Positions 1 through 17,513 of a stretch of DNA of 64,000 bases are shown one piece after another. Made by a program: the position numbers and the translations under genes. The DNA lies in the UHGV virus genome UHGV-0036582; one strand, 5' to 3'. The stretch's first letter is position 1. Every line of letters starts with the position of its first letter. This DNA comes from a virus. The notes under the pieces are model-generated. The model was not told the DNA's origin, ran no database searches, and saw only the letters and a program-made list of their open reading frames with translations.

Positions 1-3000
1 GAAAACGTTGAGTGGTATAAAAATAACACTGACGCGATTAATGCTGCTGGCGACAAAGCTCGTGAGGCGGCGGCCAGTGCTGCCGCAGCAGCAGAAAGCG
101 CCAATACCGCTGGAGAAAAAGCCTCTCAAGCGTCTCAAAGTGCATCCGCTGCGGCATCTTCACAAAGTGCTGCAAGTGCGAGCGCAACTGCTGCGAAAAA
201 ATCTGAAACGAACGCACAAGCCGCAAAAGAAGCGGCAGCAGAATCAGCATCTGTAGCGTCGGCCAAAGCATCGGAGGCAGCAACATCTGCGTCCAGTGCC
301 TCTGCATCTAAGGATGCAGCCAAAGTATCAGAGACTAACGCTTCATCGAGCGCAAACGCGGCAGCATCATCGGCAACAGAAGCTGCAAATTCGTCTAAGG
401 CAGCAAAAACGTCAGAGACAAACGCAAAAGCATCTGAAACGGCCGCCGGGCAGAGTGCAAAGTCTGCAAACAGTTCGAAATCTGCGGCAGAAGCCTCAGC
501 AAGCGCAGCCTCAGCAAGCGCGGATAGTGCTTCATCAAGTGCAACAGCGGCAGGAAAATCTGCGGAAAGTGCATCGTCATCAGCGACAACAGCTACCACA
601 AAAGCGACAGAGGCGACGAGTCAGGCTACAGCTGCTAAAAATTCAGCATCGGCAGCAAAAGCCTCTGAAACAAATGCAAAGACTTCAGAAGACAATGCTG
701 CTTCCTCTAAGGCGGCAGCTGCTGAATCTGCAAGTTCTGCGTCTGCATCAGCTACCTCGGCATCCGCTTCAAAAGATGAGGCGACTAAACAGGCGTCAGC
801 AGCGAAGGGCAGTGCCACGACGGCATCCACAAAGGCAACAGAGGCGGCAGGCAGTGCGACGGCTGCATCTCAGAGCAAAACTGCTGCCGAATCTGCTGCG
901 ACCCGTGCAGAAGCAGCCGCAGATCGTGCTGAAGAGATTGCCGGTGCAGTTGCGATGGAAGACGCAACCCTTACAACTAAAGGTGTTGTGAAACTTAGTA
1001 GTGCGACAGATAGCACCAGTGAATCGCTGGCTGCAACGCCAAAGGCAGTTAAAGCAGCCAATGACAATGCGAATAGTAGGGTGCCATCTAACCGAAAAAT
1101 TAACGGGAAAGCACTGACTGCGGATATCACATTAACGCCGAAAGATATTGGCACTTTAAATTCAGTAACGATGTCTTTCTCTGGCGGGGCTGGGTGGTTC
1201 AAACTGGCTACGGTTACCATGCCACAAGCGAGTTCCATCGTTTACATTGCATTGATTGGTGGCGCTGGTTACAACGTCGGCTCCCCACAGCAGGCAGGCA
1301 TTTCAGAACTGGTTTTACGAGCAGGCAATGGAAACCCCAAAGGGATTACCGGAGCTTTGTGGAAGCGTACAGCCGTCGGATTAACGAATTTCGCCTGGAT
1401 CAACACATCCGGCGATAAATATGATATTTACGTTGAGATTGGCAATTATGCGACGAGTGTAAATATCCATTGGGACTGTACTGCAAATGCGTCAGTTTCT
1501 GTTTATACCTCGCCAACATATTCAGCGAGTAAGCCTTCCGGCGTTACCGATGGCGTTGTTTATACGGTGTATAGCTCACACCAGAAACCTACACCATCAG
1601 ATATTGGAGCACTGCCAACAACGGGAGGGACTATTTCAGGTCCGTTGGCTGTTACTGGTGGGATCACCGGAACATTAAATGGCAATGCAAGTACCGCTAC
1701 GAAATTGCAGACTGCAAGAACTATCGGCGGCGTGGCCTTCGATGGCTCTGCGAACATAAATTTGCCTGGTGTAAACACGGCAGGTAATCAGAGCACTACT
1801 GGTAATGCCGCAACCGCTACAAAACTTCAAACGGCAAGAACGATTGGTGGCGTTTCATTTAACGGAACTGCCAACATCGACTTGCCCGGAGTTAACAAAA
1901 CTGGCAACCAAAGCACCACAGGTAATGCTGCTACAGCTACTAAATTGCAGACTGCAAGAACCATCGGTGGTGTTAGCTTTGATGGCACTGCGAATATTAA
2001 TTTGCCAGGTGTAAATACGGCAGGTAATCAGAGCACTACAGGTAACGCGGCCACAGCGACCAAGTTGCAAACTGCTAGAACTATTAACGGGGTGTCGTTT
2101 AACGGCTCTGCGAATATTTCAATACCAACAATTACGTCCAGAGGACGCGTTACTGCGCTCACCGGTACAACACAAGGTGCTGCGACTGGATTGCAGATGT
2201 ACGAGGCATATAACAATGGCTACCCTTCGACTTACGGGAATGTGCTTCATCTTAAGGGCGCAACGGCCGTTGGTGAAGGTGAGTTGTTCATAGGTTGGAG
2301 CGGTACAAGTGGCGCTCATGCACCTGTACATGTACGTTCGCGACGAGATACGGATACATCCAGTTGGTCTGAATGGGCGCAAGTTTATACGTCCAAAGAC
2401 TCAATTCCAGGTGTTAATGCCACCGGTAATCAGAACACTACTGGCAACGCGGCAACCGCCACCAAATTGCAGACAGCGAGAAGAATTAACAATGTGGCTT
2501 TTGACGGCACGAAAGATATTACTCTAACGCCTGGTAATATCGGCGCTGCTGCTTCGTCTCAGGCATGGCTGAATACTGGCGATTCAGGACAATCATTATC
2601 CACATCGTCATTTATTACGCTGCTGCAAAATAACGGCGCATTCAATCAGCGTACATGGATTGCTCGCTGTTCGTGGGCTTATGCTAATAACGCCTCAATA
2701 CCGGATAGCGAAACAAAATGCGGCACTATTCCGCTTGCTGGCGCACTGATTGAAATAACCAGCTTTGGCATGACTAACTACACAATTAGGATCACCACCG
2801 CAACGACTACCAGCGTTTCCGGTGCAAAAGTAAACGCCGAATTTATTTACGTTTACAATGGGGATGGTTATTCGCCAGGCTGGCGCAGGCAGTACAATAC
2901 TAAAAACCTGCCGACGCCACTTGAGATAGGAACTTACAGCAAATCGGAGATTGACAATTTAAATAGGAATTTTCTCACATCGTCAAGACTTGAAGCTGGC

Positions 3001-3471
3001 TCGTTAGATGCAAACTTCCAGACGTTAACTTGTTATTATTTGCAAATATTCGACATTCAGACAACAACCGATAGTCCTAACATGTTCGTAAGTCCGATTG
3101 CTGGCTACAACATGGTTTTTCGTTCGACTTCATCCCGTCGATACAAGACGGATATCGAGTCTTTAGAGAACAAGTACGCGGACGAGCTGTTGAAACTTCG
3201 TCCTGTATGGTATCGCTCGACTTGTGAAAGGGACAGAAAGGACTGGGGACATTATGGCCTTATTGCAGAAGAAGTCGGAGAGATAGCACCGCAATATGTT
3301 CACTGGCGTCCTCTTACAGACGAAGATGATCCAAGTATAGCGTCTGATAATGGGATGGTTGCTGAAGGCGTGATGTATGACCGTCTGGTTGTTCCACTCA
3401 TTCACCATATTCAAAAACTGACAAAAAGGGTTGAGGAGCTTGAAGCGAAGTTAAATTCACCTGAAGAATAA
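1..3471 (+). CDS. Tail fibre protein, 5'-truncated by the window edge; Ala/Ser-rich N-terminal repeat region, internal 40-aa tandem repeats, C-terminal intramolecular-chaperone-like domain
   Basis: Frame 1 is open from base 1 to the stop at 3469-3471; the listed ORF 955..3471 is only its Met-initiated tail. N-terminal region is Ala/Ser/Thr/Lys-rich repeats. Five copies of GN(A/Q)(S/A)TATKLQTARTIGGV.F.G.ANI.LPGVN. C-terminus (YKTDIESLENKYADELLKLRPVWY...LEAKLNSPEE) resembles the self-cleaving chaperone domain of phage tail fibres and spikes. Confidence 0.8.
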   Translation, partial: ENVEWYKNNTDAINAAGDKAREAAASAAAAAESANTAGEKASQASQSASAAASSQSAASASATAAKKSETNAQAAKEAAAESASVASAKASEAATSASSASASKDAAKVSETNASSSANAAASSATEAANSSKAAKTSETNAKASETAAGQSAKSANSSKSAAEASASAASASADSASSSATAAGKSAESASSSATTATTKATEATSQATAAKNSASAAKASETNAKTSEDNAASSKAAAAESASSASASATSASASKDEATKQASAAKGSATTASTKATEAAGSATAASQSKTAAESAATRAEAAADRAEEIAGAVAMEDATLTTKGVVKLSSATDSTSESLAATPKAVKAANDNANSRVPSNRKINGKALTADITLTPKDIGTLNSVTMSFSGGAGWFKLATVTMPQASSIVYIALIGGAGYNVGSPQQAGISELVLRAGNGNPKGITGALWKRTAVGLTNFAWINTSGDKYDIYVEIGNYATSVNIHWDCTANASVSVYTSPTYSASKPSGVTDGVVYTVYSSHQKPTPSDIGALPTTGGTISGPLAVTGGITGTLNGNASTATKLQTARTIGGVAFDGSANINLPGVNTAGNQSTTGNAATATKLQTARTIGGVSFNGTANIDLPGVNKTGNQSTTGNAATATKLQTARTIGGVSFDGTANINLPGVNTAGNQSTTGNAATATKLQTARTINGVSFNGSANISIPTITSRGRVTALTGTTQGAATGLQMYEAYNNGYPSTYGNVLHLKGATAVGEGELFIGWSGTSGAHAPVHVRSRRDTDTSSWSEWAQVYTSKDSIPGVNATGNQNTTGNAATATKLQTARRINNVAFDGTKDITLTPGNIGAAASSQAWLNTGDSGQSLSTSSFITLLQNNGAFNQRTWIARCSWAYANNASIPDSETKCGTIPLAGALIEITSFGMTNYTIRITTATTTSVSGAKVNAEFIYVYNGDGYSPGWRRQYNTKNLPTPLEIGTYSKSEIDNLNRNFLTSSRLEAGSLDANFQTLTCYYLQIFDIQTTTDSPNMFVSPIAGYNMVFRSTSSRRYKTDIESLENKYADELLKLRPVWYRSTCERDRKDWGHYGLIAEEVGEIAPQYVHWRPLTDEDDPSIASDNGMVAEGVMYDRLVVPLIHHIQKLTKRVEELEAKLNSPEE
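1681..2160 (+). repeat. Four tandem 120-bp (40-codon) repeats inside the tail fibre gene, with a fifth diverged copy near 2444
   Basis: Repeat units begin at 1681, 1801, 1921 and 2041 (ggyaaygc..accgctac.aaa.tgca.actgc.agaac.at.gg.gg.gt); protein-level repeats GNQSTTGNAATATKLQTARTIGGVSF.GTANI.LPGVN. Confidence 0.85.
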
Positions 3472-3597
3472 ACAACCTCAACGAGAATTAGTTTAGAAAC
3501 AAGTTCTCATTAGTTTTTTAATATATATAGGTAAGTACACGCCTATTAATTGAGGGGTGAAATATGATATAAATCCGCCATCCCGATTTGGCTTTTC

Positions 3598-3933
3598 ATG
3601 GAGGAAAACATGTCGAACGAGATGGCGGGCGTTACAACAGAGCAAGTTGAGCGTATTGCCGCGATCGTTGCTCGGGAGGTTGTTGGCAAATTAGGTAAAG
3701 AGCTACGTGAAGAAATTGGCCAGGAGGTCAACGATCAGCTGAAAACCTACTTTGGTGATATGACCCCGGCGCAACATAGTATTCAACACTCCAACCTGGA
3801 CAAACTCCTTAACCGGTTAGATTCCATCTCAAGTGGGTTCTTTGGCGGCATTGTTTCTAAAATAACGTCGTTCATTATTACCGCACTGCTTTTGGGGTTA
3901 GCCGCGTATGGCGTAAAAAATGGACTGCAATAA
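3598..3933 (+). CDS. Small membrane protein with C-terminal TM helix, possible holin or lysis regulator
   Basis: 111 aa; hydrophilic N-terminus and one hydrophobic helix ITSFIITALLLGLAAYGV near the C-terminus; sits directly upstream of the putative endolysin and spanins. Confidence 0.35.
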   Translation: MEENMSNEMAGVTTEQVERIAAIVAREVVGKLGKELREEIGQEVNDQLKTYFGDMTPAQHSIQHSNLDKLLNRLDSISSGFFGGIVSKITSFIITALLLGLAAYGVKNGLQ

Positions 3934-3946
3934 CAGGAGATCAAGG

Positions 3947-4639
3947 ATGAAGACTCCGAGAGGCATTCGTAATAATAACCCCGGTAATCTTGATAAAGGA
4001 TCACCGTGGCAAGGTCTGGTTGCGAATCCAGACGAACCGCGCTTTTGCACGTTTAAAGACCCTGTTTGGGGGATTCGTGCACTGGCGGTGACTCTAATTA
4101 CCTACCACGACAAGCGTCGCGCAAAAGACGGCTCAAGTATCGATACCATTCGTGAAGTTATTGAACGTTGGGCACCGCCGAATGAAAACAACACTGACGC
4201 CTACATTAATGAGGTGTCTAAAGCCGTTGGTGTAACCGCAGACATGATTATCGATCTGCATGATTACGACATTCTTCGACCTTTGGTTGAGGCAATCATT
4301 CGCCATGAGAATGGGCGAGGTCCGCTAAAAACGCTGAACACCTGGTATGCGGCAGAAGTTATTGAGGAAGGTCTGCGTCGAGCTGGCGTCGTTAAGCCGG
4401 TGAAAACCGTGAAGGCTGTTCCTGTAACTAAAGAAACGGCAGGCGCAACTGTTACAGCAGGTATTGGTCTGGCGCAGCTGGCCGATGTTATGCCGCAGGT
4501 TTCCGCTGCTATGGATAAAGCACAAGGTCATATCTCTAGCGGGGATACAGTACGCATCATCTTCGGTATTGCCACTATTGTTGTGGCTGGATTTATCGCC
4601 TGGTCGCAGGTAAGAAGACACCAGAAAGGGATGGTCTAA
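3947..4639 (+). CDS. Putative endolysin or cell-wall hydrolase with C-terminal membrane anchor
   Basis: Start moved to the ATG at 3947, which has an AGGAG RBS at 3935-3939. N-terminal RNNNPGNL motif, C-terminal hydrophobic helix IIFGIATIVVAGFIAWSQV. The call rests mainly on position between the membrane protein and the spanin pair. Confidence 0.4.
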   Translation: MKTPRGIRNNNPGNLDKGSPWQGLVANPDEPRFCTFKDPVWGIRALAVTLITYHDKRRAKDGSSIDTIREVIERWAPPNENNTDAYINEVSKAVGVTADMIIDLHDYDILRPLVEAIIRHENGRGPLKTLNTWYAAEVIEEGLRRAGVVKPVKTVKAVPVTKETAGATVTAGIGLAQLADVMPQVSAAMDKAQGHISSGDTVRIIFGIATIVVAGFIAWSQVRRHQKGMV

Positions 4640-4640
4640 T

Positions 4641-4892
4641 ATGCTAGGCAGCCTGATGACAAAGCTAAAAGTTGCTTTGATTACGCTGGCTGCCGTTCTT
4701 TTCGTTCTGGTCGGCGCTTACACGATGGGCGGAAATGCGGCGCGACGAGCAATGGAAGAGAAGGCAAAACAGGAAGACAGGAAACGACTTCAAAGCACAG
4801 TGGACGTCAAAAATGAAACACTTGATGAGTTACGGCGCAAGGATGCTTCTACTGTTCATCATGAGTTGCACAATAAGTGGTTGCGTGATTAA
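4641..4892 (+). CDS. i-spanin (Rz-like): N-terminal TM helix plus periplasmic coiled coil
   Basis: 83 aa; TM helix LKVALITLAAVLFVLVGAYTM followed by a charged helical region; the o-spanin gene is nested in its 3' end in the +1 frame. Confidence 0.7.
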   Translation: MLGSLMTKLKVALITLAAVLFVLVGAYTMGGNAARRAMEEKAKQEDRKRLQSTVDVKNETLDELRRKDASTVHHELHNKWLRD

Positions 4893-5043
4893 GCCTCAAC
4901 CCGCTGGTGTGCTTTTCTGCGATGCGGCTACACCGCTATACATCAGCCGTGATGATCTCATGACCGAAGAGACTGAAAGAGAGGTGCTTTTTCACAATAT
5001 GATTGGGGAGCGATTGTGTGGATGGGGCAGAAAAGTGCCATAA
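4813..5043 (+). CDS. o-spanin (Rz1-like) outer-membrane lipoprotein, overlapping the i-spanin gene
   Basis: ATG at 4813 inside ORF 4735..5043; signal peptide MKHLMSYGARMLLLFIMSCTISGC with a lipobox Cys; Pro-rich mature part; classic overlapped Rz/Rz1 layout. Confidence 0.65.
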   Translation: MKHLMSYGARMLLLFIMSCTISGCVIKPQPAGVLFCDAATPLYISRDDLMTEETEREVLFHNMIGERLCGWGRKVP

Positions 5044-5217
5044 CAAAAGTGGCGTTTTCTAACATAAAATTTGCATATTATTAGAGCACAAGGTAGATTT
5101 GATGCATGGATGTCAAGTAAATCATACCTTGTTTTAATAAATCGACGCATACTCGTAGCCTCTAAACCGACAAGGTCGCCGCTATGACATAAAGTTATTA
5201 CCGGCTAAGGTGGAAAC

Positions 5218-5616
5218 ATGCATACTGCACTTAACGCATCTCGTTCTATTCAGACGATAAGAGACTGTACCAAGATGATCGCATCGGTTCCGTTGCGGCA
5301 TTGGAATGACTCGCTCCAAATTCGTGAAATGAACAAACCGGGTATGCTTAAGGATCAGCGTTTCATCGTTAACCTTAAAAGTGACGTTGAAGAAGGCAAG
5401 TTTACCATCAAATTGTTTGCAGAAATGATGGTGCTCAACAATCGGTTACGTTTTCTTGTTAAGCCAGAAAAACAGTTTCCCGATGTTGTGCGTTGTGAAC
5501 AGGATGCTTTCTATGAGATTGAAAGCAAAATAGCTAAATTTATCAAAGATAAATACCGCGTAGATGTTAAAATAGCGAAACTGGATTCATCTACGGATAT
5601 GCGGCTTGCTAACTAA
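5218..5616 (+). CDS. Hypothetical protein
   Basis: 132-aa ORF, no recognisable motif; stop abuts the next ORF start (TAAATG). Confidence 0.5.
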   Translation: MHTALNASRSIQTIRDCTKMIASVPLRHWNDSLQIREMNKPGMLKDQRFIVNLKSDVEEGKFTIKLFAEMMVLNNRLRFLVKPEKQFPDVVRCEQDAFYEIESKIAKFIKDKYRVDVKIAKLDSSTDMRLAN

Positions 5617-6393
5617 ATGTCACCATCATTCATAGCAGAGTATTCAAAAGTACTGTCTGGTTTCCCTGAATGTGAAGCAAGAGAGAAAATCAGAGTTGGC
5701 TACATGGTTAACTCTGATTTTTCTGTTTTACGGCTCACAGAGTGGTCCTTGATCGGGTCTAATTATGATTACTGTTTGACAGTGTCATTTGTAGGCGACC
5801 CTGATGCAGATTGGCTTCAAGAACATGCAATGGATCTTGACGAGCAGGGGTATTCAGAAGCAGAGATAGTTCATAGTGTTCGTGAATTAGTTGGTGATGA
5901 GCAAGAAGATGATGACGGCATTCAGATCGCCAGGTTCGTCTACAAACGATTCCAGTTTCGCTCACAAAAAGGCTCTCATCTTGGGGTCCAGATTAAAGGG
6001 GCATTTGTAACCCCTTCAAAGGAACAAAAGGGACTTGCTAGAAGAGTTTACAATTTCCTTCTCAATTGGCATGACCATGTGGTATGTGATGACCATCAGA
6101 CGGTTTACGGTGCCAGAATTTGGGCGGTCGGTATGCTTCTGGTCGGGCGTGTCCAAATCTATGACAATTTAAACAAAGAATTTATAGATGTCCTTGTTGA
6201 AGGTGGTATTGGGCAGAATGGCGTCAAACCGTGGGACGCGCTGCTATTGAGCAGCGAGGCCCAGTTACGTCACTGGAACCCTATGGCCGTCAGCATAGAC
6301 CCATCTAGTCAGATTCTCGCCATCATCTCCAAAGAAGACCGTCACATTGAAGTGGGCGTTACAACTTTTGACGCCAGGTCTACCAACCATTAA
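5617..6393 (+). CDS. Hypothetical protein
   Basis: 258-aa ORF translationally coupled to the preceding ORF; followed by a terminator. Confidence 0.5.
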   Translation: MSPSFIAEYSKVLSGFPECEAREKIRVGYMVNSDFSVLRLTEWSLIGSNYDYCLTVSFVGDPDADWLQEHAMDLDEQGYSEAEIVHSVRELVGDEQEDDDGIQIARFVYKRFQFRSQKGSHLGVQIKGAFVTPSKEQKGLARRVYNFLLNWHDHVVCDDHQTVYGARIWAVGMLLVGRVQIYDNLNKEFIDVLVEGGIGQNGVKPWDALLLSSEAQLRHWNPMAVSIDPSSQILAIISKEDRHIEVGVTTFDARSTNH

Positions 6394-6397
6394 TTCC

Positions 6398-6422
6398 TAA
6401 ACCCGCTTCGGCGGGTTTTTGA
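6398..6422 (+). terminator. Rho-independent terminator
   Basis: aaacccgc-ttcg-gcgggttttt: GC stem, tetraloop and T-tract directly after the stop at 6393. Confidence 0.75.
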
Positions 6423-6548
6423 TGTTTCAGTTTCTTTATCAACCTACTAATTAACCTTTACACCGCAGCCGTAGGCATTTAGGCTATATCACATATAAGA
6501 AAACAAGTTGTTTCAGACGATAATTATATACGCAAAGGGAACTCTCCA

Positions 6549-7217
6549 ATGACCAAGATCTTTGTGGTTGGCGGCACAAAGGGCGGGCCTGGCAAATCCA
6601 CCGTTGCCCAGCAAATTGCCGTTTGCCTGAAAGTCAAAAAGAAGAAGAAGGTTTATATCACTGATATAGATATTCAGCGCACGACAACAAGCTGGTGTGA
6701 AGACCGTCGACAGAACGAAGACCTTGAGCTGATTCCTTTTGCATACGTTCAGGATGACATCATTAAGCACCTAAAATCGCTTCAGGGTAGAGCTGAGTTT
6801 GTAGTGGTAGATGCTGGTGGCTTTGACTCCGAAATTCAGCGACAAGCGATGCTGATGGCCGACGTTATCATTATCCCGCTGCGTCCTAAGCGTCGTGATT
6901 TGAAATCTTTACGTGACATCGATCCTATTATCGACAATGTTCGTAATGTAAACGATAAAGTGAAGGTCCGCGCGGTCATGAACCAGTGCCCGGCTTTGCC
7001 ATCACAAGTGTCTCGCATTTTGGCGGCTAAAGAGATTGTCGAGACGTTTGGCATCGAGTCTGCGCCAGTCAATTTATATAACCGCAACGTCTATGATGAT
7101 GCGGAAGAGTCTGGTCGTTCTATCTTTGAAATGACCGGTAGCGAGCGCGACAAAAAGGCGGAAGCCGAGTTTGAAGAATTTGTAGATTATCTGTTGAGTC
7201 TGGAGGAAGAAGAATAA
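6549..7217 (+). CDS. parA: ParA/MinD-family partition ATPase
   Basis: Deviant Walker A motif KGGPGKST in MTKIFVVGGTKGGPGKSTVAQQIA; 222 aa; followed by a small overlapping ORF as in type Ib partition operons. Confidence 0.8.
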   Translation: MTKIFVVGGTKGGPGKSTVAQQIAVCLKVKKKKKVYITDIDIQRTTTSWCEDRRQNEDLELIPFAYVQDDIIKHLKSLQGRAEFVVVDAGGFDSEIQRQAMLMADVIIIPLRPKRRDLKSLRDIDPIIDNVRNVNDKVKVRAVMNQCPALPSQVSRILAAKEIVETFGIESAPVNLYNRNVYDDAEESGRSIFEMTGSERDKKAEAEFEEFVDYLLSLEEEE

Positions 7218-7576
7218 TGTCCATGAAAATGGGTGACCTAGCAAAGCGCAAAGAGTCTGATGCACCGGCTAAGAACACAACTCCTTTGCGCCAACCAGTC
7301 AGACCACAGGGACGCCCGACTCGTGGCAAAGAGAAAATTAAAAGCCGCACAATGTCACTGGAGGACGAATACTTCGAACTGCTGGAGATGATGAAGTTCA
7401 TCCCTCGCTTCGAGAAGTTCACTCGTTCTGACGTGATTCGAGCAGCCATTTTCCATCTGGCAGAGAAGTCACCGCAGGAAATCGAGGACATCGTGAAATT
7501 GAATGAGGCGATCACCGCTGCCGATGTCACGATGCGTACCGATGAAATCAAACGAGAGTTGATGAAGAAAGGTTAA
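7217..7576 (+). CDS. Small DNA-binding partition partner, ribbon-helix-helix-like (ParG-like)
   Basis: 119 aa, start overlaps the parA stop; basic N-terminus; C-terminal segment RTMSLEDEYFELLEMMK...RSDVIRAAIFHLAEK has a strand-helix-helix pattern. Confidence 0.45.
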   Translation: MSMKMGDLAKRKESDAPAKNTTPLRQPVRPQGRPTRGKEKIKSRTMSLEDEYFELLEMMKFIPRFEKFTRSDVIRAAIFHLAEKSPQEIEDIVKLNEAITAADVTMRTDEIKRELMKKG

Positions 7577-7579
7577 AAA

Positions 7580-7614
7580 TCATGCATTGGCGTAATGTAC
7601 GCGCCAATGCATGA
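7580..7614. terminator. 13-bp inverted repeat between convergent genes, possible bidirectional terminator
   Basis: tcatgcattggcg / cgccaatgcatga arms with a 9-nt loop; no clear T-tract. Confidence 0.4.
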
Positions 7615-7628
7615 GTACAATGTCAGTT

Positions 7629-8396
7629 TTATGCCGCGCTAACACTATGTTCAGTCCTAACCACTCCAACCTTCACAAAAGGGCTACCGTAGCTTGGTGG
7701 CTTCTTGATTAATTTGCCAACATACAGTTTTCTAATATGCTCATCGGCTATTCTGCCAACAAATTCATAACGTTTTGTGTCGGGGCCAAGAGCTATATCC
7801 CTTGTAAAGTACTGCTGAGAACCGGCTTTGACCCAGCATTCAATCTGATAAACTTCCATTATCAGCCCACCATATGTAGCGTAGGCATATTTGAGATTCT
7901 CGTCTCTTGGAACCTTTGCCCATACGCCACGCGTAGCTTCATATAATGCCAGAGCGGACATTCCTGACTTGTAGGTGCTGTTTAGCAGGAAGGCAAGACC
8001 GGCGTGCTCAGGAGCAATTTCAGTTTCCTCTTGCAGCACTAAGTGATGGTAGGCGTCCAGTGATATTCTGCCCATCATGGAACCACTTCCTCGTACCTTA
8101 TTCGTAAGCTCTCCGACCCCCATAAGGTCGATGCATGTCGCCTCAACAAGTTTGGCTGTGGTTTCATCCATACCATGACGAAGTATATCTATGCCTAATT
8201 TTTTATTAGCCAAAAGTTCTTTGATCCGCATGGATTTGGGAGAGTCATCGGGATACTTGATGTGATCGAGACAACGAGTCGATTTGCCTTTTCCTATGTA
8301 AAACGGTCTTTTCATCTTGTCTTCTGTATCATAGAGACAGTAAACATAGTATTTAGCCTTATCCAATGATCTCGCGTATACCGATAAATCGTCCAT
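7629..8396 (-). CDS. GIY-YIG nuclease-domain protein with an uncharacterised C-terminal domain
   Basis: N-terminus YYVYCLYDTEDKMKRPFYIGKGKSTRCLDH matches the GIY...YIG...R...H pattern; about 150 aa of unrecognised C-terminal sequence. Confidence 0.6.
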   Translation of the reverse strand: MDDLSVYARSLDKAKYYVYCLYDTEDKMKRPFYIGKGKSTRCLDHIKYPDDSPKSMRIKELLANKKLGIDILRHGMDETTAKLVEATCIDLMGVGELTNKVRGSGSMMGRISLDAYHHLVLQEETEIAPEHAGLAFLLNSTYKSGMSALALYEATRGVWAKVPRDENLKYAYATYGGLIMEVYQIECWVKAGSQQYFTRDIALGPDTKRYEFVGRIADEHIRKLYVGKLIKKPPSYGSPFVKVGVVRTEHSVSAA

Positions 8397-8671: not shown

Positions 8672-9421
8672 GTGAGCCACATGAGCCAAATCTTTTTCGA
8701 TACCATTGACAACGACCAGTACGACTTCATGACAGAGTGGAATACCGCTGTTATGGACAAGTGGGTCGCTGAAAACATTGGTTTGTCGCGCTGCAAAGAC
8801 GAGGCTGAACTCTTCGAGACGAAGTGGTTTGATTACCGCGATATGCATCCTCTCATGGCCACCTGTCTTTTTACGGAGGCATACAAACGTCAGTACTCAA
8901 ATATCATGCTGACGCACGGTCGCGAACACTTTGAAACAGCTCCGTTCACCACCGGGTTAAAACGCCTGCCTTATCAGGAGTTGTCGACTGCCAATAAAAC
9001 GTCTCTATGGAAAGCACGCCAGTTTGCTGACCGCTATTGCTGCTCATACGACTACTTTATCTCCACCGTTCTTTCCGCAGCTGCACGACGTCTGTGGGAC
9101 AAGCTGCCGCGTCCGCAGCATTTATGGCAGCCAGAACTGATTGAGATATTTGAAGAGAAATTAGCCAGACGCGCAATAACCCGTCTGGATGACTCTCTGG
9201 TTAGCTTTAAGCATATGGGAGACATGCAGTTCAACCCGATTCAGGAAAGCTATTTTGAGTGGATTCTGGAGCGTTTGCGCACCATCCCTCGCAGCAAGCG
9301 CATACGCGCAATTTTCTCCGCTATCTGGCTAATGGAAATCGTTCCAGAGCGCCTTATTTCCGCCCACTTTCCAGAAGAACTGGAAGAAGCACGGCGGTTT
9401 ATTGATCCCCTATCTAATTAA
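8672..9421 (+). CDS. Hypothetical protein upstream of the helicase gene (possible replication accessory factor)
   Basis: 249-aa ORF, no recognisable motif; position is the only basis for the suggested role. Confidence 0.45.
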   Translation: MSHMSQIFFDTIDNDQYDFMTEWNTAVMDKWVAENIGLSRCKDEAELFETKWFDYRDMHPLMATCLFTEAYKRQYSNIMLTHGREHFETAPFTTGLKRLPYQELSTANKTSLWKARQFADRYCCSYDYFISTVLSAAARRLWDKLPRPQHLWQPELIEIFEEKLARRAITRLDDSLVSFKHMGDMQFNPIQESYFEWILERLRTIPRSKRIRAIFSAIWLMEIVPERLISAHFPEELEEARRFIDPLSN

Positions 9422-9464
9422 CTAATACTAGAAAACAATTTGTTTAAAAAACAAAGGAAAGCAC

Positions 9465-10805
9465 ATGACCGAACTTTGCCATACAGGACGCGGGCTGTCC
9501 GAAGAGTTTGATGAAGATTTTCAGAACAGATTGACGGCCTATTTTTGTCGTGATCACGAGTTTCTTACTCGTGCTGGAGATCTGGTTGTACCTAGCCAAT
9601 TTGCCAATGCGGCCAATGCCATATTGGTTAATATGGTTTCGGGCTATTACCGTATGTACAAGAGCGCGCCCTCTTCATCTGCGATTCTGGATATGCTTAA
9701 GCGTGCGAAACGCGATAAGACTATCCGTGAGGAACTATTCGCCGATGTTGTTGCTGCGTTTAAGCGCATCCTTGCAGAAAAATTGTCTGATACCTCGTAC
9801 ATGGTTGACCAGGTATCAACCTTCGCAAAAAGCGTAGCGTTTGATGATGCTCTGATTAAGGCTGCTGAACTGAAAGAGAAGGGCGACTTTCAGGGGGCGA
9901 TGGCAATCATGGCCAAGGTTCAGCAGATTGGATCGAACGAAGCGACCGGAATCTATGACTACTACACCTCCGCAAGTGAGCGATTGAAAGCGCGTGAATA
10001 TGAGGCTTCAGAGGAGTATGTGCCAAACAGCATTACAACTGGACTCCCTCTGCTCGATAGGTTGCTGTACCAAAAAGGCTGGGCGAAGCGTGAAATGGTG
10101 CTCTTCATGGGGTTCGCTAAATCCGGTAAATCGACCGCAATGGGTGAGTTTTCCATAAACGCAACGCTTGCTGGCTACAATGTTCTGTATCTCTCGCTGG
10201 AGGTTCACACCAACATTTTGTCCGACCGCTTTGATGCAAGATTGTCGGAGACGGAAATGTCCAAGCTGGTGGAACGGCGCGATGAAGTTCATCGTAAGTT
10301 GGCAGAGTTGGGAGCCACTAAGGGGATTGGTAGTTTGTGGGTTGTTGAGCGTCCGTCAGGAAGTATGTCACCGGCAGATCTGGACCGTATGCTTAACAGT
10401 ATGAAAGCCAATGGCATGGTGCCTGACATGGTTGTTGTCGACTACGCAGATTTGATGCGTGCCAGTTATGACCTTCGTGATGATCGCGCCAATATTCGTA
10501 GTATCTACACCGATTTACGTGCTCTTTATGACAAGCATAACGTTGCTGGGATCACGGCATCGCAGACAAACCGTGAAGGTGGCGCGTCAGAAGTTGCCAC
10601 AATGATGCACGCCGCCGATAACATCGAAAAAGTACGTATTGCTGACCTGGTAATAACGATCAACAAAACCGAAGAAGAAGAAGCGAAAGGAGAGGCTCGT
10701 CTCTACTTTGCTGGTTCACGTAACCAGCAGGGTGGGATCAGCATTCGCGTTAAACAAAACCTCGAACAAATGCGTTTCATTGAGCGAATCTTAGACGTTA
10801 CCTAA
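9465..10805 (+). CDS. DnaB-like replicative helicase
   Basis: 446 aa; Walker A GFAKSGKST; RecA-fold C-terminal domain with the DnaB-typical VVVDYADLM segment; conserved leader aaaggaaagcacATG. Confidence 0.75.
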   Translation: MTELCHTGRGLSEEFDEDFQNRLTAYFCRDHEFLTRAGDLVVPSQFANAANAILVNMVSGYYRMYKSAPSSSAILDMLKRAKRDKTIREELFADVVAAFKRILAEKLSDTSYMVDQVSTFAKSVAFDDALIKAAELKEKGDFQGAMAIMAKVQQIGSNEATGIYDYYTSASERLKAREYEASEEYVPNSITTGLPLLDRLLYQKGWAKREMVLFMGFAKSGKSTAMGEFSINATLAGYNVLYLSLEVHTNILSDRFDARLSETEMSKLVERRDEVHRKLAELGATKGIGSLWVVERPSGSMSPADLDRMLNSMKANGMVPDMVVVDYADLMRASYDLRDDRANIRSIYTDLRALYDKHNVAGITASQTNREGGASEVATMMHAADNIEKVRIADLVITINKTEEEEAKGEARLYFAGSRNQQGGISIRVKQNLEQMRFIERILDVT

Positions 10806-10886
10806 AAAATAAGCGTGGAGAACACCTCCACGCTTGATTCATTTGTGAAACAACTTTTCTTTTGCCAAACCACAAAAGAAAAACAC

Positions 10887-12068
10887 ATGAGCCTTTATGT
10901 TATATCAACATTTAGGTTGGTCACAATATTGCCTGTTAAAAGTGGAATTATCGTGAGCGAGCTGAAAGAGCTAATTGCCGAATTAGATTTTGAACAATGG
11001 TTGGATACTGAAGGTATCGTTTATCGACGTGGAGGCGTGAGTGCTCGCGGTCGTGAAGTGAATATCAAGGAATGTCCGGTATGCGGCAGCTCCAACTGGA
11101 AGGTATATTTCAATCTGACCAGTGGCGTCGGCAAATGCTTTGCTGGTGATCATCCCGAAGAGATTCAGTTCAATAAGCTGGTCTTCCTCAAGCACTACAG
11201 CGGCAAATCACGACGACAGTTCGAGGAATATGTGCAGAACGCTCTTCTTTCCCAGGGGTGGGCACCAAAGAAAGAAGAGATAGTGCTTGCAAGCACAGTC
11301 GAGTTAGAGGGACCAGTTGCCCTCCCTCGTCATTACGAACTTCCTATAGATGGCCGTCTTCCAGACTATCTGGTTGAACGAAACATATCGCCTGAAATGG
11401 CAAAGTATTTTGACCTACGATACTGCGTCGAAGGCAAGCACGCTTATGTAGATCCGTATACAGATCAGGTAAAAGGACAGATATTCGATATGCGAATACT
11501 CATACCGGTTTACGATCTGGATGGGGTAATGAAGACATTTCAGGGACGAGACATTACCGGTACAGCAGAACGTCGCTACCTCTTTCCTATGCAGCTTCCA
11601 GCTTCAGGTAAGTTTCTCTACAACGGCCATAATGCAGTCGGCAAACAGACGGTAGTTGTCTGTGAGGGGGCGTTCGATGTTATGGGGGTCAAACGAGCTA
11701 TTTTTGACGAAGAAACATTACGTGATTACGTGGAACCAATAGGAACGTTCGGGATGCATCTATCTGGCAACACCACTCAGGATGCAGAAGATCAGCTGGG
11801 CGCGTTCCTGACGCTCAAGGCGCGTGGATTACGTAATGTGATCATGATGTGGGATAGTGAAAAGCAAGCTATACGCAACACTATGGCCGCAGCTAGGCGA
11901 CTCACAAGTATTGGCCTTAATGTCAAAGTTGCGTGTTTGGGCGAGGAAGGACTCGACCCCGGCGATGCGACACCGGGGCAGATTATCAAAGCCTACTATT
12001 GCGCAAAACCTTATTCACGACAGCTTGAACTCTTAAGCAAGGTGAAAGGCATTGCAGCACTAGTTTGA
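10887..12068 (+). CDS. DNA primase (zinc-ribbon plus Toprim)
   Basis: Start set at the ATG at 10887, preceded by aaaagaaaaacacATG; Zn-ribbon CPVCGSSNWKVY...C..DH; Toprim-like VVVCEGAFDVMG; lies directly after the helicase. Confidence 0.7.
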   Translation: MSLYVISTFRLVTILPVKSGIIVSELKELIAELDFEQWLDTEGIVYRRGGVSARGREVNIKECPVCGSSNWKVYFNLTSGVGKCFAGDHPEEIQFNKLVFLKHYSGKSRRQFEEYVQNALLSQGWAPKKEEIVLASTVELEGPVALPRHYELPIDGRLPDYLVERNISPEMAKYFDLRYCVEGKHAYVDPYTDQVKGQIFDMRILIPVYDLDGVMKTFQGRDITGTAERRYLFPMQLPASGKFLYNGHNAVGKQTVVVCEGAFDVMGVKRAIFDEETLRDYVEPIGTFGMHLSGNTTQDAEDQLGAFLTLKARGLRNVIMMWDSEKQAIRNTMAAARRLTSIGLNVKVACLGEEGLDPGDATPGQIIKAYYCAKPYSRQLELLSKVKGIAALV

Positions 12069-13097
12069 ACCAGTATTAGTCACGTAAACATTGACCGAAA
12101 ATGATTTAACTTCTGTGTTGAAGTTGTCAGTCATTACCGCGAGGTAGGCATTCTTGGTATCTCTGAATTGCTTCAGGATGATTTGAACGTTATCGGTGCA
12201 AACAAACGAGGTAGCCAGATTGCCTCCTTTCTCTGAAAAATCCTTTAGGAAAGTGCAGTCAATTTTGCCATCATTAGCGGTGAAGGTGGCATCATCACCC
12301 TGCCAGGTAAATGTTGCGTTAACGCCTTTATCAATGGATTTAGCAATAAGTCGCTGAGTGGAGGATTTTGCTTTAGATCTTGCTGCTGATGGTTGGTATT
12401 TACCGCTTTCTTTTAGTTCTGCAATGTAATCACAGCCATTTTTATCTTCTTTATCGCAAGCTGCCTGATAAAGCTCAGCTGCTTTTTTATAATCTTTTTT
12501 AACCCCTTCACCATACTCATACATAATGCCAAGATTCGCCAATGCAGATGCACTGCCTAGTTCGATTCCTTTTTTATAATACTCTATTGCCTTTTTGTAG
12601 CTTTTTGGCACGCCTGCGCCAACATAATATAACTGTCCTAAATATGACGCAGATTCAGGGTCGCCAGCCTCTACTGCAAGTTTGTGATATTTCAGGGAAA
12701 GTTTTTGGTCTTTCTTACCCGCAAGTCCTTTATGATAAATAACACCCAGATTGTGATAAGAGTTGCCTCCAGCTGCATCACCAGCTTTCTTAAAGAGTTC
12801 CTCTGCCTTTTTGAAATTTTTATCAACCCCATACCCAAGGGCATACATTATACCTAGAGCATTAAACGCTTCTTTGTTCCCCTTAGAAGTCGCCAGTTCA
12901 AGCCATTTTCTGGCTTCATCGTAGTTTTTTTCGACACCATGAATACCTTTCATATAGTCGATACCTAAAGCACTCTGTGACTCAACGTCGCCTGCTTTTG
13001 CCGCATCGATCAGCTTTTGTATTTCATAGGCATGTGCACTCCCCGAAACAAGTAATAGCGACAACATAAAGAAAGATATTGGTTTGAAATGTTTCAT
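12060..13097 (-). CDS. Secreted Sel1-like repeat protein
   Basis: Signal peptide MKHFKPISFFMLSLLLVSGSAHA; repeated units G..(A/S).(N/Y/A)LG..Y..G.GV.K(N/D/S)Y.(K/E)A..(W/L/Y) typical of Sel1/TPR-like repeats; C-terminal about 110 aa non-repeat. Confidence 0.7.
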   Translation of the reverse strand: MKHFKPISFFMLSLLLVSGSAHAYEIQKLIDAAKAGDVESQSALGIDYMKGIHGVEKNYDEARKWLELATSKGNKEAFNALGIMYALGYGVDKNFKKAEELFKKAGDAAGGNSYHNLGVIYHKGLAGKKDQKLSLKYHKLAVEAGDPESASYLGQLYYVGAGVPKSYKKAIEYYKKGIELGSASALANLGIMYEYGEGVKKDYKKAAELYQAACDKEDKNGCDYIAELKESGKYQPSAARSKAKSSTQRLIAKSIDKGVNATFTWQGDDATFTANDGKIDCTFLKDFSEKGGNLATSFVCTDNVQIILKQFRDTKNAYLAVMTDNFNTEVKSFSVNVYVTNTGSN

Positions 13098-13278
13098 TTT
13101 TGGATTTTCACAAGATGGTTAGGTGGTTGTGGCTACTCGGTGTAAGGCTTTGTAATCACCGATTGGTAAGGTTACTTCAATTTAGCTTAACTGTCAGCAT
13201 ACCCAATCGCCGAAAAGATAAGTAGATGATTACTTATTGGTGTGTAAGAATACTGCCATCTGTTAGCTAGGAGTTGGT

Positions 13279-14061
13279 ATGAAAGAAGAAATTAAGAGAT
13301 TAGCCTGCAACATCATTGATAAAACTGGTTTAGAAATCAGCGAGAGCAATCGGCTAGACATCATTGAAAAAGCCGTCAATACGGCAATGGATCATATCGC
13401 CACTCGTTTGGTCGAGATCCCGCTACCGGGGCTACCTTATCTGAAGGTTAAGTTGCGCGTATGGGGCGAACCTGCACATGCACGACGTTCTGCATTAGTT
13501 GTTTTTGTACGCAAAGAAAACTTACGAACTCTAAAAGTGCAGGTTGGGGCGTGGTTTGATGGCAGAGTCATCTATACAGATACCATTATCTGTCCTCCAG
13601 GTGACGAACATATTGAAGCCGTCATTCGAGAATCAATTCGAGCTATGCGCAGTTTAGCTTTGCTGGAAGACAAGCAAAACTTTGAAGATTACTTGCTGTC
13701 GGTAAAAGCTGAACCAACATTGTCTCTGAAAGCCGATTTCGTCACCCCGACAAATCTGTTGGAGGTTTTGATTAATAAAGGGGCTAATGATGCTGTAAAC
13801 CTAATCAGGGAAAGCGAATATTCGACTCTTTGCGACATGTGCAAAAGCCAGTTGGATCTTGTGCATATCATTGTTGATGCGGGGAAGGCGTGTGATGGCG
13901 TAATGGCGGAATTTGCTGGGAAGATGGTCAGGATTGCTAATGAATTACCGATGATAGAGCAAGAGGCCAAATCATACGCCACCAATCATGTCACAGAGCT
14001 TCTTGCCCCCTATCGCTTAGAAAGCGATCAGCGCAAGATGATTAGCTGGGGAAGTTGGTAA
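13279..14061 (+). CDS. Hypothetical protein
   Basis: 260-aa ORF, no recognisable motif. Confidence 0.45.
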   Translation: MKEEIKRLACNIIDKTGLEISESNRLDIIEKAVNTAMDHIATRLVEIPLPGLPYLKVKLRVWGEPAHARRSALVVFVRKENLRTLKVQVGAWFDGRVIYTDTIICPPGDEHIEAVIRESIRAMRSLALLEDKQNFEDYLLSVKAEPTLSLKADFVTPTNLLEVLINKGANDAVNLIRESEYSTLCDMCKSQLDLVHIIVDAGKACDGVMAEFAGKMVRIANELPMIEQEAKSYATNHVTELLAPYRLESDQRKMISWGSW

Positions 14062-14128
14062 GCTCTCTGTGTGTCGTTTTTTACGCAAATAATGATAGGT
14101 AAGCACAAGATTATTTCTGGCGGTAATT

Positions 14129-14599
14129 GTGAAAGCTGATTTGTCAAAAATCCCTTCTATTTCAGGAAATAACGGTTATTCACTTCGTTGTGAGGAAGTA
14201 AAGATAAACGGTGAGTCGGCATATTGCAGCTATTCCGTTTGCCAGCACACCATTCTTGCCTTCAAAGAAAACCGTCTTCCTCGAACTTCTTTCCAGTCGT
14301 GCGCAACCGCTATTAAAGCAGGCAAATGTAAGGCGTTAAAAATGATGGTTGAAGAGATTCGTAAAGGAGAATCTCTGTATTTCGAAGATATGACCGCACT
14401 CATTAAGGAGGTTGAAGAACGGAATAAACAAGCCAGAACTTTAAAACGAAAACGTGACAGTGTAACTATTAATAGCATGGTTAAGAAGAGCGCCACATCA
14501 CAAACATCGATCTCTGACGTGTATGCGGCATTGCTTGAAGAAACAACAAAAGAAACACATGAGCAAATCGATCAACATATGGAGGCAAAACAACAATGA
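14129..14599 (+). CDS. Hypothetical protein (start uncertain)
   Basis: 156-aa ORF ending where the ligase gene starts. Confidence 0.4.
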   Translation: MKADLSKIPSISGNNGYSLRCEEVKINGESAYCSYSVCQHTILAFKENRLPRTSFQSCATAIKAGKCKALKMMVEEIRKGESLYFEDMTALIKEVEERNKQARTLKRKRDSVTINSMVKKSATSQTSISDVYAALLEETTKETHEQIDQHMEAKQQ

Positions 14600-15918
14600 A
14601 AAAGTTGATCGCACTTAAGCATAAGCTGGACGAAATGAAAGCTATGGGAACCAATGCAAAAAAAGAGGCATTGGCCAACATGGATGACTTCGAGCAAAGC
14701 ATGGTTTCATTGATGCTCAACCCTTTCATCCGTTTTGGGGTAAAGAAATACAAAGTGGCAGAGCCGCTTAGTGAGTCCGTCCCAAGTGACGAAAAAGCCA
14801 TTGATGTACTGAATAAGCTGGCCTCTCGCGAGCTGACGGGGAACGCAGCAATAGCTGCTGTTGAGTCTATCGTGGCGTCAATGTGCGCCGATGGGCAGGA
14901 CGTGTTCCGTCGTTTCCTCTTAAAAGACCCGAAAGCGGGTGTTGGGATTAGCCTATGCAACAAGGTTTTTGAAAATCCCATTCCGAAATTCGAGGTGCAG
15001 CTGGCGTCACCGTATAAAGAAAAAGGCGACAAATACCCCTTCAAGCCAAACCCTAAAGCAAAATGGCCGATGATTGGCAGCCTTAAGCTCGATGGTTTGC
15101 GAGTAATTTGCGAGGTTATTGTTGACGAAGAAGAGGTTAACTTCCTTTCTCGTACTGGTAATCCAATCACGTCTCTCGATCACCTAAAGCCAGCCATGCT
15201 CGAATTAGGCAAACTTTCAGGCCACAAACACATCTTCTTCGATGGTGAAGGCACAGCCGGTTCATTTAACCAGTCCGTATCTGCATTGCGCAAAAAGAAC
15301 GTGCAGGCAATTGGCGCTATTTATCATGTTTTCGACTTCTTCCTACCGGAATGGCGAGCACAGGCTAAATCCAAAGAGTATGCAAAGACAGGTATGAAGC
15401 TGAAAGAGCGCCTGGCTATGCTCGTGGCGTTGTTCAAAAACGATCGCAGTGAAGGCTACGCACAAGACATTCACCTGCATCCGTTCTACATCATCCATAG
15501 CCACGAAGACTTCATCGAACGCTTCATGAAACGCCTGGACGATAACGAAGAAGGGGAGATGGGCAAAGATCCGAACTCTGTTTACGAGTTTAAACGTACC
15601 CGCAGCTGGTGGAAGTTAAAAGACGAAGATTCAGAAGATGGTGAAATTATCGATTTTGAGCCGGGCGACCCGGACTCTGGTTTTGCCAACACGCTTGGGA
15701 AAATTGTTATTCGTCTTGAAAACGGCGTCATCGTTCGTGCGAGCGGCATTAAGCATAAATATCTGGACGAGATCTGGAACAACAAAGAGAAGTACCGTGG
15801 TCGTATTGTCGAGGTTCATTGTCACGAGAAAACACCTGATGGCAGCTTACGCCACCCACGACTGAAATGGCCGCGTTGCTTACGCGATACCGAAGATCGA
15901 ATCGGAGATAAAGAATGA
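14596..15918 (+). CDS. ATP-dependent DNA ligase
   Basis: Adenylation motif I KLDGLR (SLKLDGLRVICEV); 440 aa; motif-like segments FDGEG and EGEMGKDPNSVYEFKRT. Confidence 0.75.
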   Translation: MKKLIALKHKLDEMKAMGTNAKKEALANMDDFEQSMVSLMLNPFIRFGVKKYKVAEPLSESVPSDEKAIDVLNKLASRELTGNAAIAAVESIVASMCADGQDVFRRFLLKDPKAGVGISLCNKVFENPIPKFEVQLASPYKEKGDKYPFKPNPKAKWPMIGSLKLDGLRVICEVIVDEEEVNFLSRTGNPITSLDHLKPAMLELGKLSGHKHIFFDGEGTAGSFNQSVSALRKKNVQAIGAIYHVFDFFLPEWRAQAKSKEYAKTGMKLKERLAMLVALFKNDRSEGYAQDIHLHPFYIIHSHEDFIERFMKRLDDNEEGEMGKDPNSVYEFKRTRSWWKLKDEDSEDGEIIDFEPGDPDSGFANTLGKIVIRLENGVIVRASGIKHKYLDEIWNNKEKYRGRIVEVHCHEKTPDGSLRHPRLKWPRCLRDTEDRIGDKE

Positions 15919-16130: not shown

Positions 16131-16275
16131 TTCCATACATCTCATTAGCTTTTATGGCTGGCTTCCTTATCGGCTTCGGCATCTGTCGTGATTTGATTAA
16201 GCAGGAACTTAAAACCAAAACACTGTGCATCGGGAAGCGTGTGTATCGGGTAGTTCATGAAACAAAGGTGAGAAA

Positions 16276-17417: not shown

Positions 17418-17422
17418 ATTTA

Positions 17423-17509: not shown

Positions 17510-17513
17510 AATT

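Follow-up and report, generated by a model that had tools for sequence, protein, structure and literature searches.

The window analysed here is a 64,000-nucleotide stretch of the virus genome UHGV-0036582, and its first 3,471 nucleotides belong to a side (lateral) tail fibre gene on the plus strand. The element that carries the gene is an SSU5-like Escherichia coli phage-plasmid (plasmid-prophage). Frame 1 is open from the first base of the window to a stop codon at 3469-3471, with the first 136 codons falling outside, and the gene therefore begins 408 nt before the window rather than at 1681, the first position that an earlier note on this DNA gives for the fibre. The product is 100% identical to a database entry of 1292 aa annotated as a tail fibre protein (P0001), and many PHROG tail fibre families match it, with scores of up to 1476 bits; an NCBIfam search with the whole protein returned zero matches. 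In L008-L011, the gene directly upstream encodes a gpJ-like tail tip protein of 1430-1542 aa (the 1430-aa copy is shortened by a contig end) with GpJ, Phage-tail_3 and Phage_Tail_Tip domains. The position after a gpJ-like gene and the matches to PF03406 and to PHROG fibre families identify the product as a siphovirus side tail fibre. Downstream lie a gene of phrog_5093 (unknown function), an endolysin and a spanin, and no tfa or U-type fibre-assembly gene stands between the fibre gene and the lysis genes. The element also encodes a UvsX-like recombinase, whose gene lies at 32139-33212, and a single-strand binding protein and an exonuclease of its own. Residue numbers such as Ser726 count from the Met at nt 955; Ser726 is Ser1180 of the full protein. 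The features are as follows.

1..3471, + strand: side (lateral) tail fibre gene, 5' end outside the window; codes residues 137-1292 of 1292 aa
1..954, + strand: Ala/Ser-rich proximal shaft with low-complexity, heptad-like repeats, seen in the translation; weak internal repeats (family D3)
967..1089, + strand: Phage_fiber_2 motif (PF03406, Pfam E = 7e-19), also in Mu S
1099..1632, + strand: unnamed globular domain, no Pfam match
1681..2118, + strand: shaft repeats of 120 nt / 40 aa in tandem; three full units at 1681, 1801 and 1921, then part of a fourth (2041-2118)
2119..2406, + strand: knob domain with the motif ...YNNGYPSTYGN...; with repeats 3-5, common to fibre gene S of P1-like phages
2407..2526, + strand: isolated fifth repeat unit (family D2 copy 2407-2508), holding the left junction of the exchanged cassette
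2443..3443, + strand: exchanged distal cassette; 97.5% identity to the fibre gene that a lambdoid prophage carries in the E. coli SE11 chromosome
2527..2934, + strand: homologue of Mu S' (gp52) residues 195-329 (phmmer against PDB 8JU3, domain E = 1.9e-30)
2935..3129, + strand: linker and distal tip of about 65 aa; the mature fibre would end here if cleavage takes place; candidate receptor contact
3130..3468, + strand: Peptidase_S74 intramolecular chaperone domain, 113 aa; predicted nucleophile Ser726 (3130-3132), predicted general base Lys731 (3145-3147)

The proximal shaft is 91-95% conserved in sister plasmids. The proximal part of the same fibre is found in 249 plasmid records, which indicates that SSU5-like phage-plasmids are common in E. 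coli. The Phage_fiber_2 motif aligns to Mu S residues 111-156 (PDB 5YVQ, 8JU3). Plasmid pMRY16-002_2 (L001) aligns to window positions 1-1076 and 1585-2487, and a Mu S'-like domain replaces the intervening 1077-1584. Two small ORFs downstream of the fibre of this plasmid, which lacks an S74 domain, were considered as separate assembly chaperones and rejected as membrane or moron-type proteins. The stretch 1919-2482 has 82% DNA identity to the P1 tail fibre gene S, and knob conservation stands at about 94% for sister plasmids and 82% for P1-like fibre genes. Fibre residues 520-660 form the stretch that matches Mu S'. No Pfam family matches the globular domain, the knob or the Mu-like domain, and a PDB sequence search with 1633-2520 (repeats and knob) found nothing at E up to 10.

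Only one tandem array in the 64 kb scores at least 80 by Tandem Repeats Finder, that at 1692-2081 (period 120, 3.2 copies, 72% matches, 0% indels, score 409). A separate repeat search places copies at 1681, 1801 and 1921, with an additional copy at 2407-2508; in register, units start at 1681, 1801, 1921 and 2041, the last retaining only its first 26 or so residues, and the isolated unit at 2443. The repeats had been described as perfectly phased, and so they are, the 120-nt period keeping exactly to the reading frame without indels, but to take the units for perfect copies is wrong. The three full units share 69-84% identity in DNA and 82-92% in protein, the longest exact in-register match between units is 23 nt, and their differences lie mostly at third codon positions or synonymous sites. 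Divergence of this extent and kind suggests that the copies are old, and the 40-aa repeats would be maintained by protein-level selection as spacer units of the shaft. Repeat number does vary: a set of 120 relatives shows 2-4 units in the first array and 1-3 in the second, which is a single copy in the window fibre. The genes L012 and L013, otherwise 100% identical, differ by exactly one 120-nt unit in the second array, and the junction lies inside a 38-nt exact match between units that are 91% identical. The same distal module stands behind one unit in E. coli SE11, two units in P0051, and four units, the knob and one further unit in the window. Variation among relatives is mostly module exchange rather than pure copy-number change. 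The few contigs with the exact protein, six of which were read, necessarily have the same array and are uninformative on copy-number variation, because the look-up returns exact protein matches only.

The distal cassette, from 2443 to about 3440, has no counterpart in other SSU5-like plasmids. Its left junction lies in a repeat unit, where sister plasmid matches end at 2482-2487 and the match to SE11-type prophages begins at 2443; in the SE11 fibre, unit 1 is joined directly to unit 5, followed by the same distal module. The right junction, at about 3434-3445, falls inside the last helix of the S74 domain, and the sequence beyond it matches the SSU5-like plasmid pPSUO78_2. Within the cassette, the tip and the S74 domain travel as a single module (BLAST boundaries at query residues 175-182). 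Match ends were surveyed in a spread sample of 60 of the 249 plasmid records. All matches that run from window base 1 past 1100 end at 1775-2080 or 2487, those to P1-like plasmids stop at 2482, and on the left side matches begin at 1681, 1692, 1798 and 1918-1921. Because the repeats are conserved parts, BLAST matches tend to end in them, and these ends mark module borders without proving crossovers. Exchange driven by an invertase is rejected, there being no Hin/Gin/Cin consensus site in the window, allowing up to three mismatches, and no inverted repeats in 1-3600.

At the C-terminus, the earlier note had seen a resemblance to self-cleaving intramolecular chaperones, which is borne out by a profile match and a conserved Ser/Lys pair. 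PF13884 matches residues 726-782 (E = 1.1e-8; 35.7 bits against a Pfam cut-off of 22) over model positions 1-57 of 58, with model position 1 falling on Ser726. The domain starts at this residue (nt 3130), four codons ahead of the 'YKTDIESLENKY' quoted in that note, and makes up the final 113 aa. Across 17 homologues drawn from several phage groups, the motif RSTSSxRYK hardly varies, and its Ser, Arg and Lys are conserved together with a GLIAEEV core. The motif lines up with SDRRNK, the canonical form, in P0200 and, judged by eye, with S911-NGER-K916 of K1F; in the K1F record the annotated chaperone domain starts at Ser911. The Ser726/Lys731 spacing equals that of S911/K916 in endoNF and of S587/K592 in MyRF, and a Ser/Lys catalytic dyad with its spacing has been described for this domain family (PMC8326128). 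By motif alignment, Ser726 and Lys731 occupy the positions of the endosialidase catalytic dyad.

The region is probably the distal part of a modular side tail fibre gene of an SSU5-like phage-plasmid, in which shaft repeats serve both as spacers and as homology for exchange, the distal cassette has been exchanged with a lambdoid prophage fibre, and the S74 domain is a self-cleaving chaperone. The fibre would consist, in order, of the Ala/Ser shaft, Phage_fiber_2 motif, globular domain, four 40-aa repeats, P1-S-like knob, one repeat, Mu-S'-like domain, tip of about 65 aa and 113-aa S74 domain. By analogy with its family, the S74 domain would trimerise first and template the folding of the distal fibre; it would then cut in front of Ser726 using Lys731, releasing itself and exposing the tip. 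Since the domain would itself chaperone folding, the lack of a separate fibre-assembly gene downstream would be accounted for. Fibres from several phage groups contain the same repeat unit, which thereby supplies homology where modules swap, are gained or drop out. The cassette crossovers would have taken place in such a unit on the left and in the last S74 helix on the right; the direction of the exchange we infer.

Three departures from this reading need to be weighed. One holds that the 120-nt array is an active, contingency-type hotspot whose frequent expansion and contraction tune fibre length, much as the earlier note had proposed of the repeats. For the fibre family, the proposal that recombination in the repeats varies fibre length is supported by the differing unit numbers and the L012/L013 pair. 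For the array in the window, the same findings count in favour of a hotspot, as do the element's recombinase, single-strand binding protein and exonuclease and the acceptance of diverged substrates by phage recombinases (PMC3945230), but an active hotspot there is unlikely. Units of a contingency locus would be expected to be nearly identical in DNA, and the divergence of the window units and the shortness of their exact matches make them a poor substrate for simple slippage; the one documented single-unit change joined more similar units and occurred in the second array, and no such difference with the same flanks was seen for the array of the window. A second departure, in which the S74-like domain has degenerated to a remnant and remains attached, uncleaved, is harder still to credit. 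Its motif has Ser at position 2, in place of the canonical Asp, and attempts to confirm the S74 fold from structure failed. AlphaFold2 monomer models of residues 480-838 and 666-838 have mean pLDDT of 47.2 and 47.6, Foldseek with the second, low-pLDDT model against the PDB returned only noise and no meaningful match, and hhalign of the C-terminal alignment against the K1F chaperone domain aligned the last helix only. Low pLDDT is expected of monomer models of an intertwined trimer, and a long C-terminal helix, of a kind that could form a trimeric coiled coil, is predicted at model residues 329-355 (block pLDDT 68-88 over residues 311-359 of the first model) and recurs in the second. Against a remnant stand the profile score above the Pfam cut-off, the conservation of the motif Ser, Arg and Lys and of the GLIAEEV core in homologues from several phage groups, and the 88-90% identity of the domain among cassettes, which makes it their most conserved part and suggests selection on function.

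The third departure concerns which segment touches the receptor. The earlier note had assigned host range to about 2200-3100, an interval that overlaps the truly exchanged segment (2443 to about 3440) but that also takes in the conserved knob at 2119-2406. Within the cassette, we regard the tip of about 65 aa (2935-3129) as the best candidate for the receptor contact. No other segment varies as much among wider relatives: identity in the tip falls to 16-40%, where the Mu-S'-like domain keeps 66-72%. Host specificity in DT57C, a T5-like phage, resides in a segment immediately upstream of the S74 cleavage site (PMC4728585). There is an appreciable, if lesser, chance that the Mu-S'-like domain (2527-2934) is instead the receptor-binding domain, with the tip and the S74 domain only a folding device: in Mu S' its homologous stretch belongs to the variable, host-specific half, and cassettes that are otherwise related diverge by about 30% in this domain. 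Yet this domain sits in mid-fibre in most SSU5-like relatives and in L001, and in P0003 and P0005 the last repeat leads straight to the tip and S74 domain without it. Because other fibres have it at internal positions, the residues just before the putative cleavage site have at least as strong a claim to receptor contact as the Mu-S'-like domain.

Several known systems resemble the fibre in part. The T5-like lateral fibres (T5 pb1; DT57C LtfA, PDB 8HQZ chain d) are likewise long siphovirus side fibres that end in Peptidase_S74, and the C-terminal 120 aa of the window fibre align, weakly (E = 0.003-0.01), to DT57C LtfA residues 947-1074; their shaft modules are unrelated, however, and the element here is a temperate phage-plasmid. 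The endosialidase chaperone of K1F gp17 (PDB 3GW6) belongs to the same Pfam family, has the Ser...Lys +5 spacing at the first residue of its released domain, and shares a G(L/V)IA(E/Q)(E/Q) core and the final long helix with the window domain, but its passenger is a sialidase tailspike rather than a fibre, and the sequences are too distant for hhalign. Likeness to Mu S' (gp52, PDB 8JU3) and the P1 S fibre extends over the Mu S' domain match, the 82% DNA identity to P1 S and the common Phage_fiber_2 motif. Unlike Mu and P1, the locus has no U/U'-type assembly gene, invertible segment or Gin/Cin site, and unlike in Mu, the Mu-like domain is followed by an S74 module. The lambda-type Stf of E. 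coli prophages such as that of SE11 is likewise encoded after a J-like gene and has a distal 1 kb that is 97.5% identical, whereas the N-terminal attachment domain here is SSU5-type and not PF08400, and four extra repeat units and the knob are present. Conserved motifs common to unrelated phages have been reported to border exchanged fibre segments (Haggard-Ljungquist 1992; Sandmeier 1992, 1994, as cited in PMC3945230). The present case is the same in principle and adds one further example, in a phage-plasmid.

The gene is thus an ordinary but well-preserved example of known phage biology, its protein already in the databases: a textbook illustration of mosaic fibres and of self-cleaving chaperones that answers no open question and reveals nothing new. 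A wider reading, which we put forward tentatively and as rather doubtful, is that of a portable receptor-binding cassette flanked by universal homology arms, its left arm being the 40-aa repeat and its right arm the conserved S74 domain. The cassette would move among phage-plasmids, P1-like plasmids, integrated lambdoid prophages and virulent E. coli phages of the T1- and T5-like groups, with exchange at these diverged arms driven by the element's UvsX-like recombination genes. Were this reading true, the host range of the whole group would be predictable, and could be re-engineered, from one cassette. Phage-plasmids can reportedly carry antibiotic resistance genes (PMC9600943), and knowing which segment sets host range and is traded with chromosomal prophages would aid in predicting their spread. 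The repeat unit and the S74 helix offer natural junctions for fibre engineering.

The interval 1681-3471 is contained in a single long plus-strand reading frame. In the ORF listing this frame starts at a Met at 955 and encodes 838 aa; translation shows frame 1 open already from window base 1, across an Ala/Ser-rich stretch. A protein search found a 1292-aa E. coli sequence (P0001, "tail fiber domain-containing protein") 100% identical across all 838 aa, and comparison with a sister plasmid places gene nucleotide 409 at window base 1. The first 136 codons are therefore missing from the window, and the interval represents the outer two-thirds of the gene. Residues are numbered here from the Met at 955; adding 454 gives full-length numbering. 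Long ORFs at 38-1238 (minus strand) and 296-991 (plus strand, frame 2) were rejected as genes, being by-products of biased GCN/TCN codons in the Ala/Ser-rich part. The gene product is 12.6% Ser, 11.8% Thr and 6.7% Asn, with ACA making up 30% of Thr codons and TCA 23% of Ser codons. Four plus-strand tRNA genes lie at 17343-17900, Asn(GTT), Tyr(GTA), Thr(TGT) and Ser(TGA), three of them confirmed by Rfam, and the last two read these codons.

DNA matches fall on non-mobilizable E. coli plasmids of about 110 kb that belong to the SSU5-like phage-plasmids, among them pECOH89 and pLF82 (phage Cyrano). In contigs with the identical protein, the fibre gene is preceded by a tail tip gene of gpJ type. 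Complete copies of the latter encode 1541-1542 aa; the copy in contig L010, cut by the contig end, encodes 1430 aa. Downstream come a small protein of unknown function, an endolysin and an Rz-like spanin. Gene order and plasmid matches together identify the product as the side (lateral) fibre of a siphovirus-type plasmid-prophage. Among the genes just after it there is no fibre-assembly gene, consistent with a fibre that carries its own chaperone. The lysis cassette (3598-5043, plus strand) opens with the 111-aa protein (phrog_5093), followed by the endolysin (3920-4639), which has a hydrophobic C-terminal tail, and the spanin (4641-4892); an out-of-frame overlapping ORF at 4735-5043 may be its Rz1-type partner. 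Beyond it lie a ParA-like partition ATPase (6549-7217, plus strand), a replication module within 9465-29162 (DnaB-like helicase, primase, ligase, DNA polymerase), an integrase-like gene (19986-21089), then ribonucleotide reductase, thymidylate synthase-like and CobT/porphyrin-like genes, and a large DNA methyltransferase (60550-62235). Partition, replication and nucleotide genes with a methyltransferase are the set typical of SSU5-like phage-plasmids.

Modules of the fibre gene in the window, with the evidence for each.
1-954, plus strand: Ala/Ser-rich shaft (translation)
967-1089, plus strand: Phage_fiber_2 motif, also matching Mu S (Pfam, Mu S alignment)
1099-1632, plus strand: unnamed globular domain (no Pfam match)
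1681-2118, plus strand: repeat array (Tandem Repeats Finder, in-register comparison)
2119-2406, plus strand: knob; with repeats 3-5, 82% DNA identity to gene S in P1-like phages and plasmids
2407-2526, plus strand: fifth repeat (separated copy in repeat search)
2527-2934, plus strand: domain matching Mu S' (8JU3) residues 195-329 (E = 1.9e-30)
2935-3129, plus strand: linker and tip (BLAST borders, variability)
3130-3468, plus strand: S74 domain (Pfam)

Tandem Repeats Finder reports 1692-2081 (period 120, 3.2 copies, 72% matches, 0 indels, score 409) as the sole array scoring at least 80 in the 64 kb window, and the repeat search adds a separated copy at 2407-2508. In register, units start at 1681, 1801, 1921 and 2041, with an isolated unit at 2443. 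Each unit encodes 40 aa of the form GNAATATKLQTARTIGGVSFDGTANINLPGVNTAGNQSTT; of the fourth, just the first ~26 aa remain. For repeat and knob alike, the searches gave no Pfam family and no relative of solved structure. The earlier note's observation of phased 120-bp repeats ahead of an S74-like C-terminal domain is confirmed, but its "perfectly phased" copies are perfect in phase only. The three full units share 82-92% protein identity against 69-84% DNA identity, with 14-28 third-position differences per pair and a longest in-register exact match of 23 nt; the copies are therefore old and kept alike by selection on the protein.

Repeat number does vary among relatives. Among 120 compared, 104 proteins have a 3+1+1 arrangement, seven 4+3, two 4+2, and others differ again; 4+1 occurs only in the fibre under study. 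Two relatives' genes, L012 and L013, are identical in DNA apart from one 120-nt unit, and the prefix and suffix that they share overlap over 38 nt, exactly the longest exact match of two neighbouring 91%-identical units, a pattern characteristic of unequal homologous exchange or slippage. That change is located in the second array, where the window has a single unit. The window's first array offers 23 nt of exact identity, close to the shortest length commonly cited as sufficient for RecA-dependent exchange in E. coli. Phage recombinases accept diverged partners (PMC3945230). The element in the window encodes a UvsX/RecA-like recombinase, with single-strand binding protein, exonuclease and SbcCD-like nuclease genes (29837-33212 and 40932-44163, plus strand), which might help diverged fibre repeats to recombine. 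The proposal that the repeats are recombination hotspots is thus right for the family, but weak for the window's own array, whose exact matches reach only 23 nt.

The DNA comparisons point to exchange on a larger scale. The sister plasmid pMRY16-002_2 is 94-95% identical over 1-1076 and 1585-2487, with a different domain between these segments and a different fibre end; that end lacks S74, and two ORFs of membrane or moron type come after it (region 9211-10073). No match to an SSU5-like plasmid runs past 2487. Among 60 plasmid records, sampled at intervals from 249, all matches running from base 1 past 1100 end at 1775-2080 or at 2487; P1-like plasmid matches stop at 2482. These ends lie inside repeat units, and left match ends (1681, 1692, 1798, 1918-1921) lie near unit starts. 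Between 2443 and 3443 the window shares 97.5% identity with chromosomal lambdoid prophage fibre genes of E. coli SE11, A30 and two others. In SE11, unit 1 runs straight into unit 5 and then the same distal module; the related protein P0051 has two units ahead of this module, where the window has four, the knob and one more. Similarity to SE11 ends at about 3434-3445, within the final helix of S74; past this point the window again matches SSU5-like plasmids through the 3' flank. Protein-level borders agree, with one block of repeat and Mu-like domain (query residues 5-180) and another of tip and S74 (175/182-359), the latter also a separate protein of ~231 aa in T1-like phages. Most of the cassette occurs in four complete E. 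coli genomes, in none of them on a plasmid. The simplest reading is cassette exchange by homologous recombination, in which a repeat unit would have served as left arm and the S74 domain as right arm. Because a match necessarily ends in conserved sequence, its ends mark module borders more surely than crossover points. Elsewhere in the group, CP059946 p2 has a T4 gp38-like adhesin gene after its fibre (7027-7809). In pEC7518-111k an IS1203 transposase gene (992-2205) lies within or beside the gpJ-like gene region, ~1.7 kb ahead of the fibre CDS as annotated (3955-6621), which starts late; this tail module may be disrupted.

The proposed chaperone-like domain was borne out by the profile search, in which Peptidase_S74 (PF13884) matched residues 726-782 and scored 35.7 bits, above its cut-off of 22. 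Ser726 (3130-3132) is model position 1 and Lys731 follows five residues on, the spacing of the catalytic dyads S911/K916 of endosialidase and S587/K592 of MyRF (PMC8326128). The K1F record annotates the released chaperone from Ser911, and its S-NGER-K ... HFGVIAQQI parallels S-SRRY-K ... HYGLIAEEV here. The RSTSSxRYK motif hardly varies among 17 homologues, drawn from prophages and T1-like phages, and in that column the distant relative P0200 shows the canonical SDRRNK. The one solved structure reached by sequence was LtfA, a fibre from a T5-like phage (8HQZ chain d, E = 0.003-0.01). Structural confirmation failed: two monomer models had mean pLDDT near 47, and a fold search with the second returned noise. 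From profile match, dyad spacing and conserved motif we infer, on good grounds, that the fibre would cleave itself before Ser726.

The earlier note, whose interpretation is partly supported, had assigned host range to about 2200-3100. The knob is conserved in sister plasmids and P1-like genes, and is therefore not the variable determinant; the Mu-like domain and the tip stand as candidates. Across relatives the former keeps 66-72% identity and the tip 16-40%, and S74 is the most conserved segment among near relatives (88-90%). The Mu-S'-like domain is mid-fibre in most relatives and in pMRY16-002_2, and is missing from some fibres that still end in tip and S74. The T5-like phage DT57C carries its specificity segment immediately ahead of the cleavage site (PMC4728585). 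With the knob conserved, the Mu-like domain often internal and sometimes absent and the tip variable, we favour, with slightly better than even confidence, the ~65 residues that immediately precede Ser726 as the receptor contact, ahead of the Mu-like domain, which may nevertheless contribute.

S74-terminated lateral fibres are known from T5, DT57C and K1F, and Mu- and P1-type modules and lambda-type side fibres are likewise familiar. Descriptions of motif-mediated fibre mosaicism go back to 1992. Public databases already contain the exact protein, which was examined in six contigs. Every element of this fibre is thus of a known kind, and it is the particular combination that is rare.
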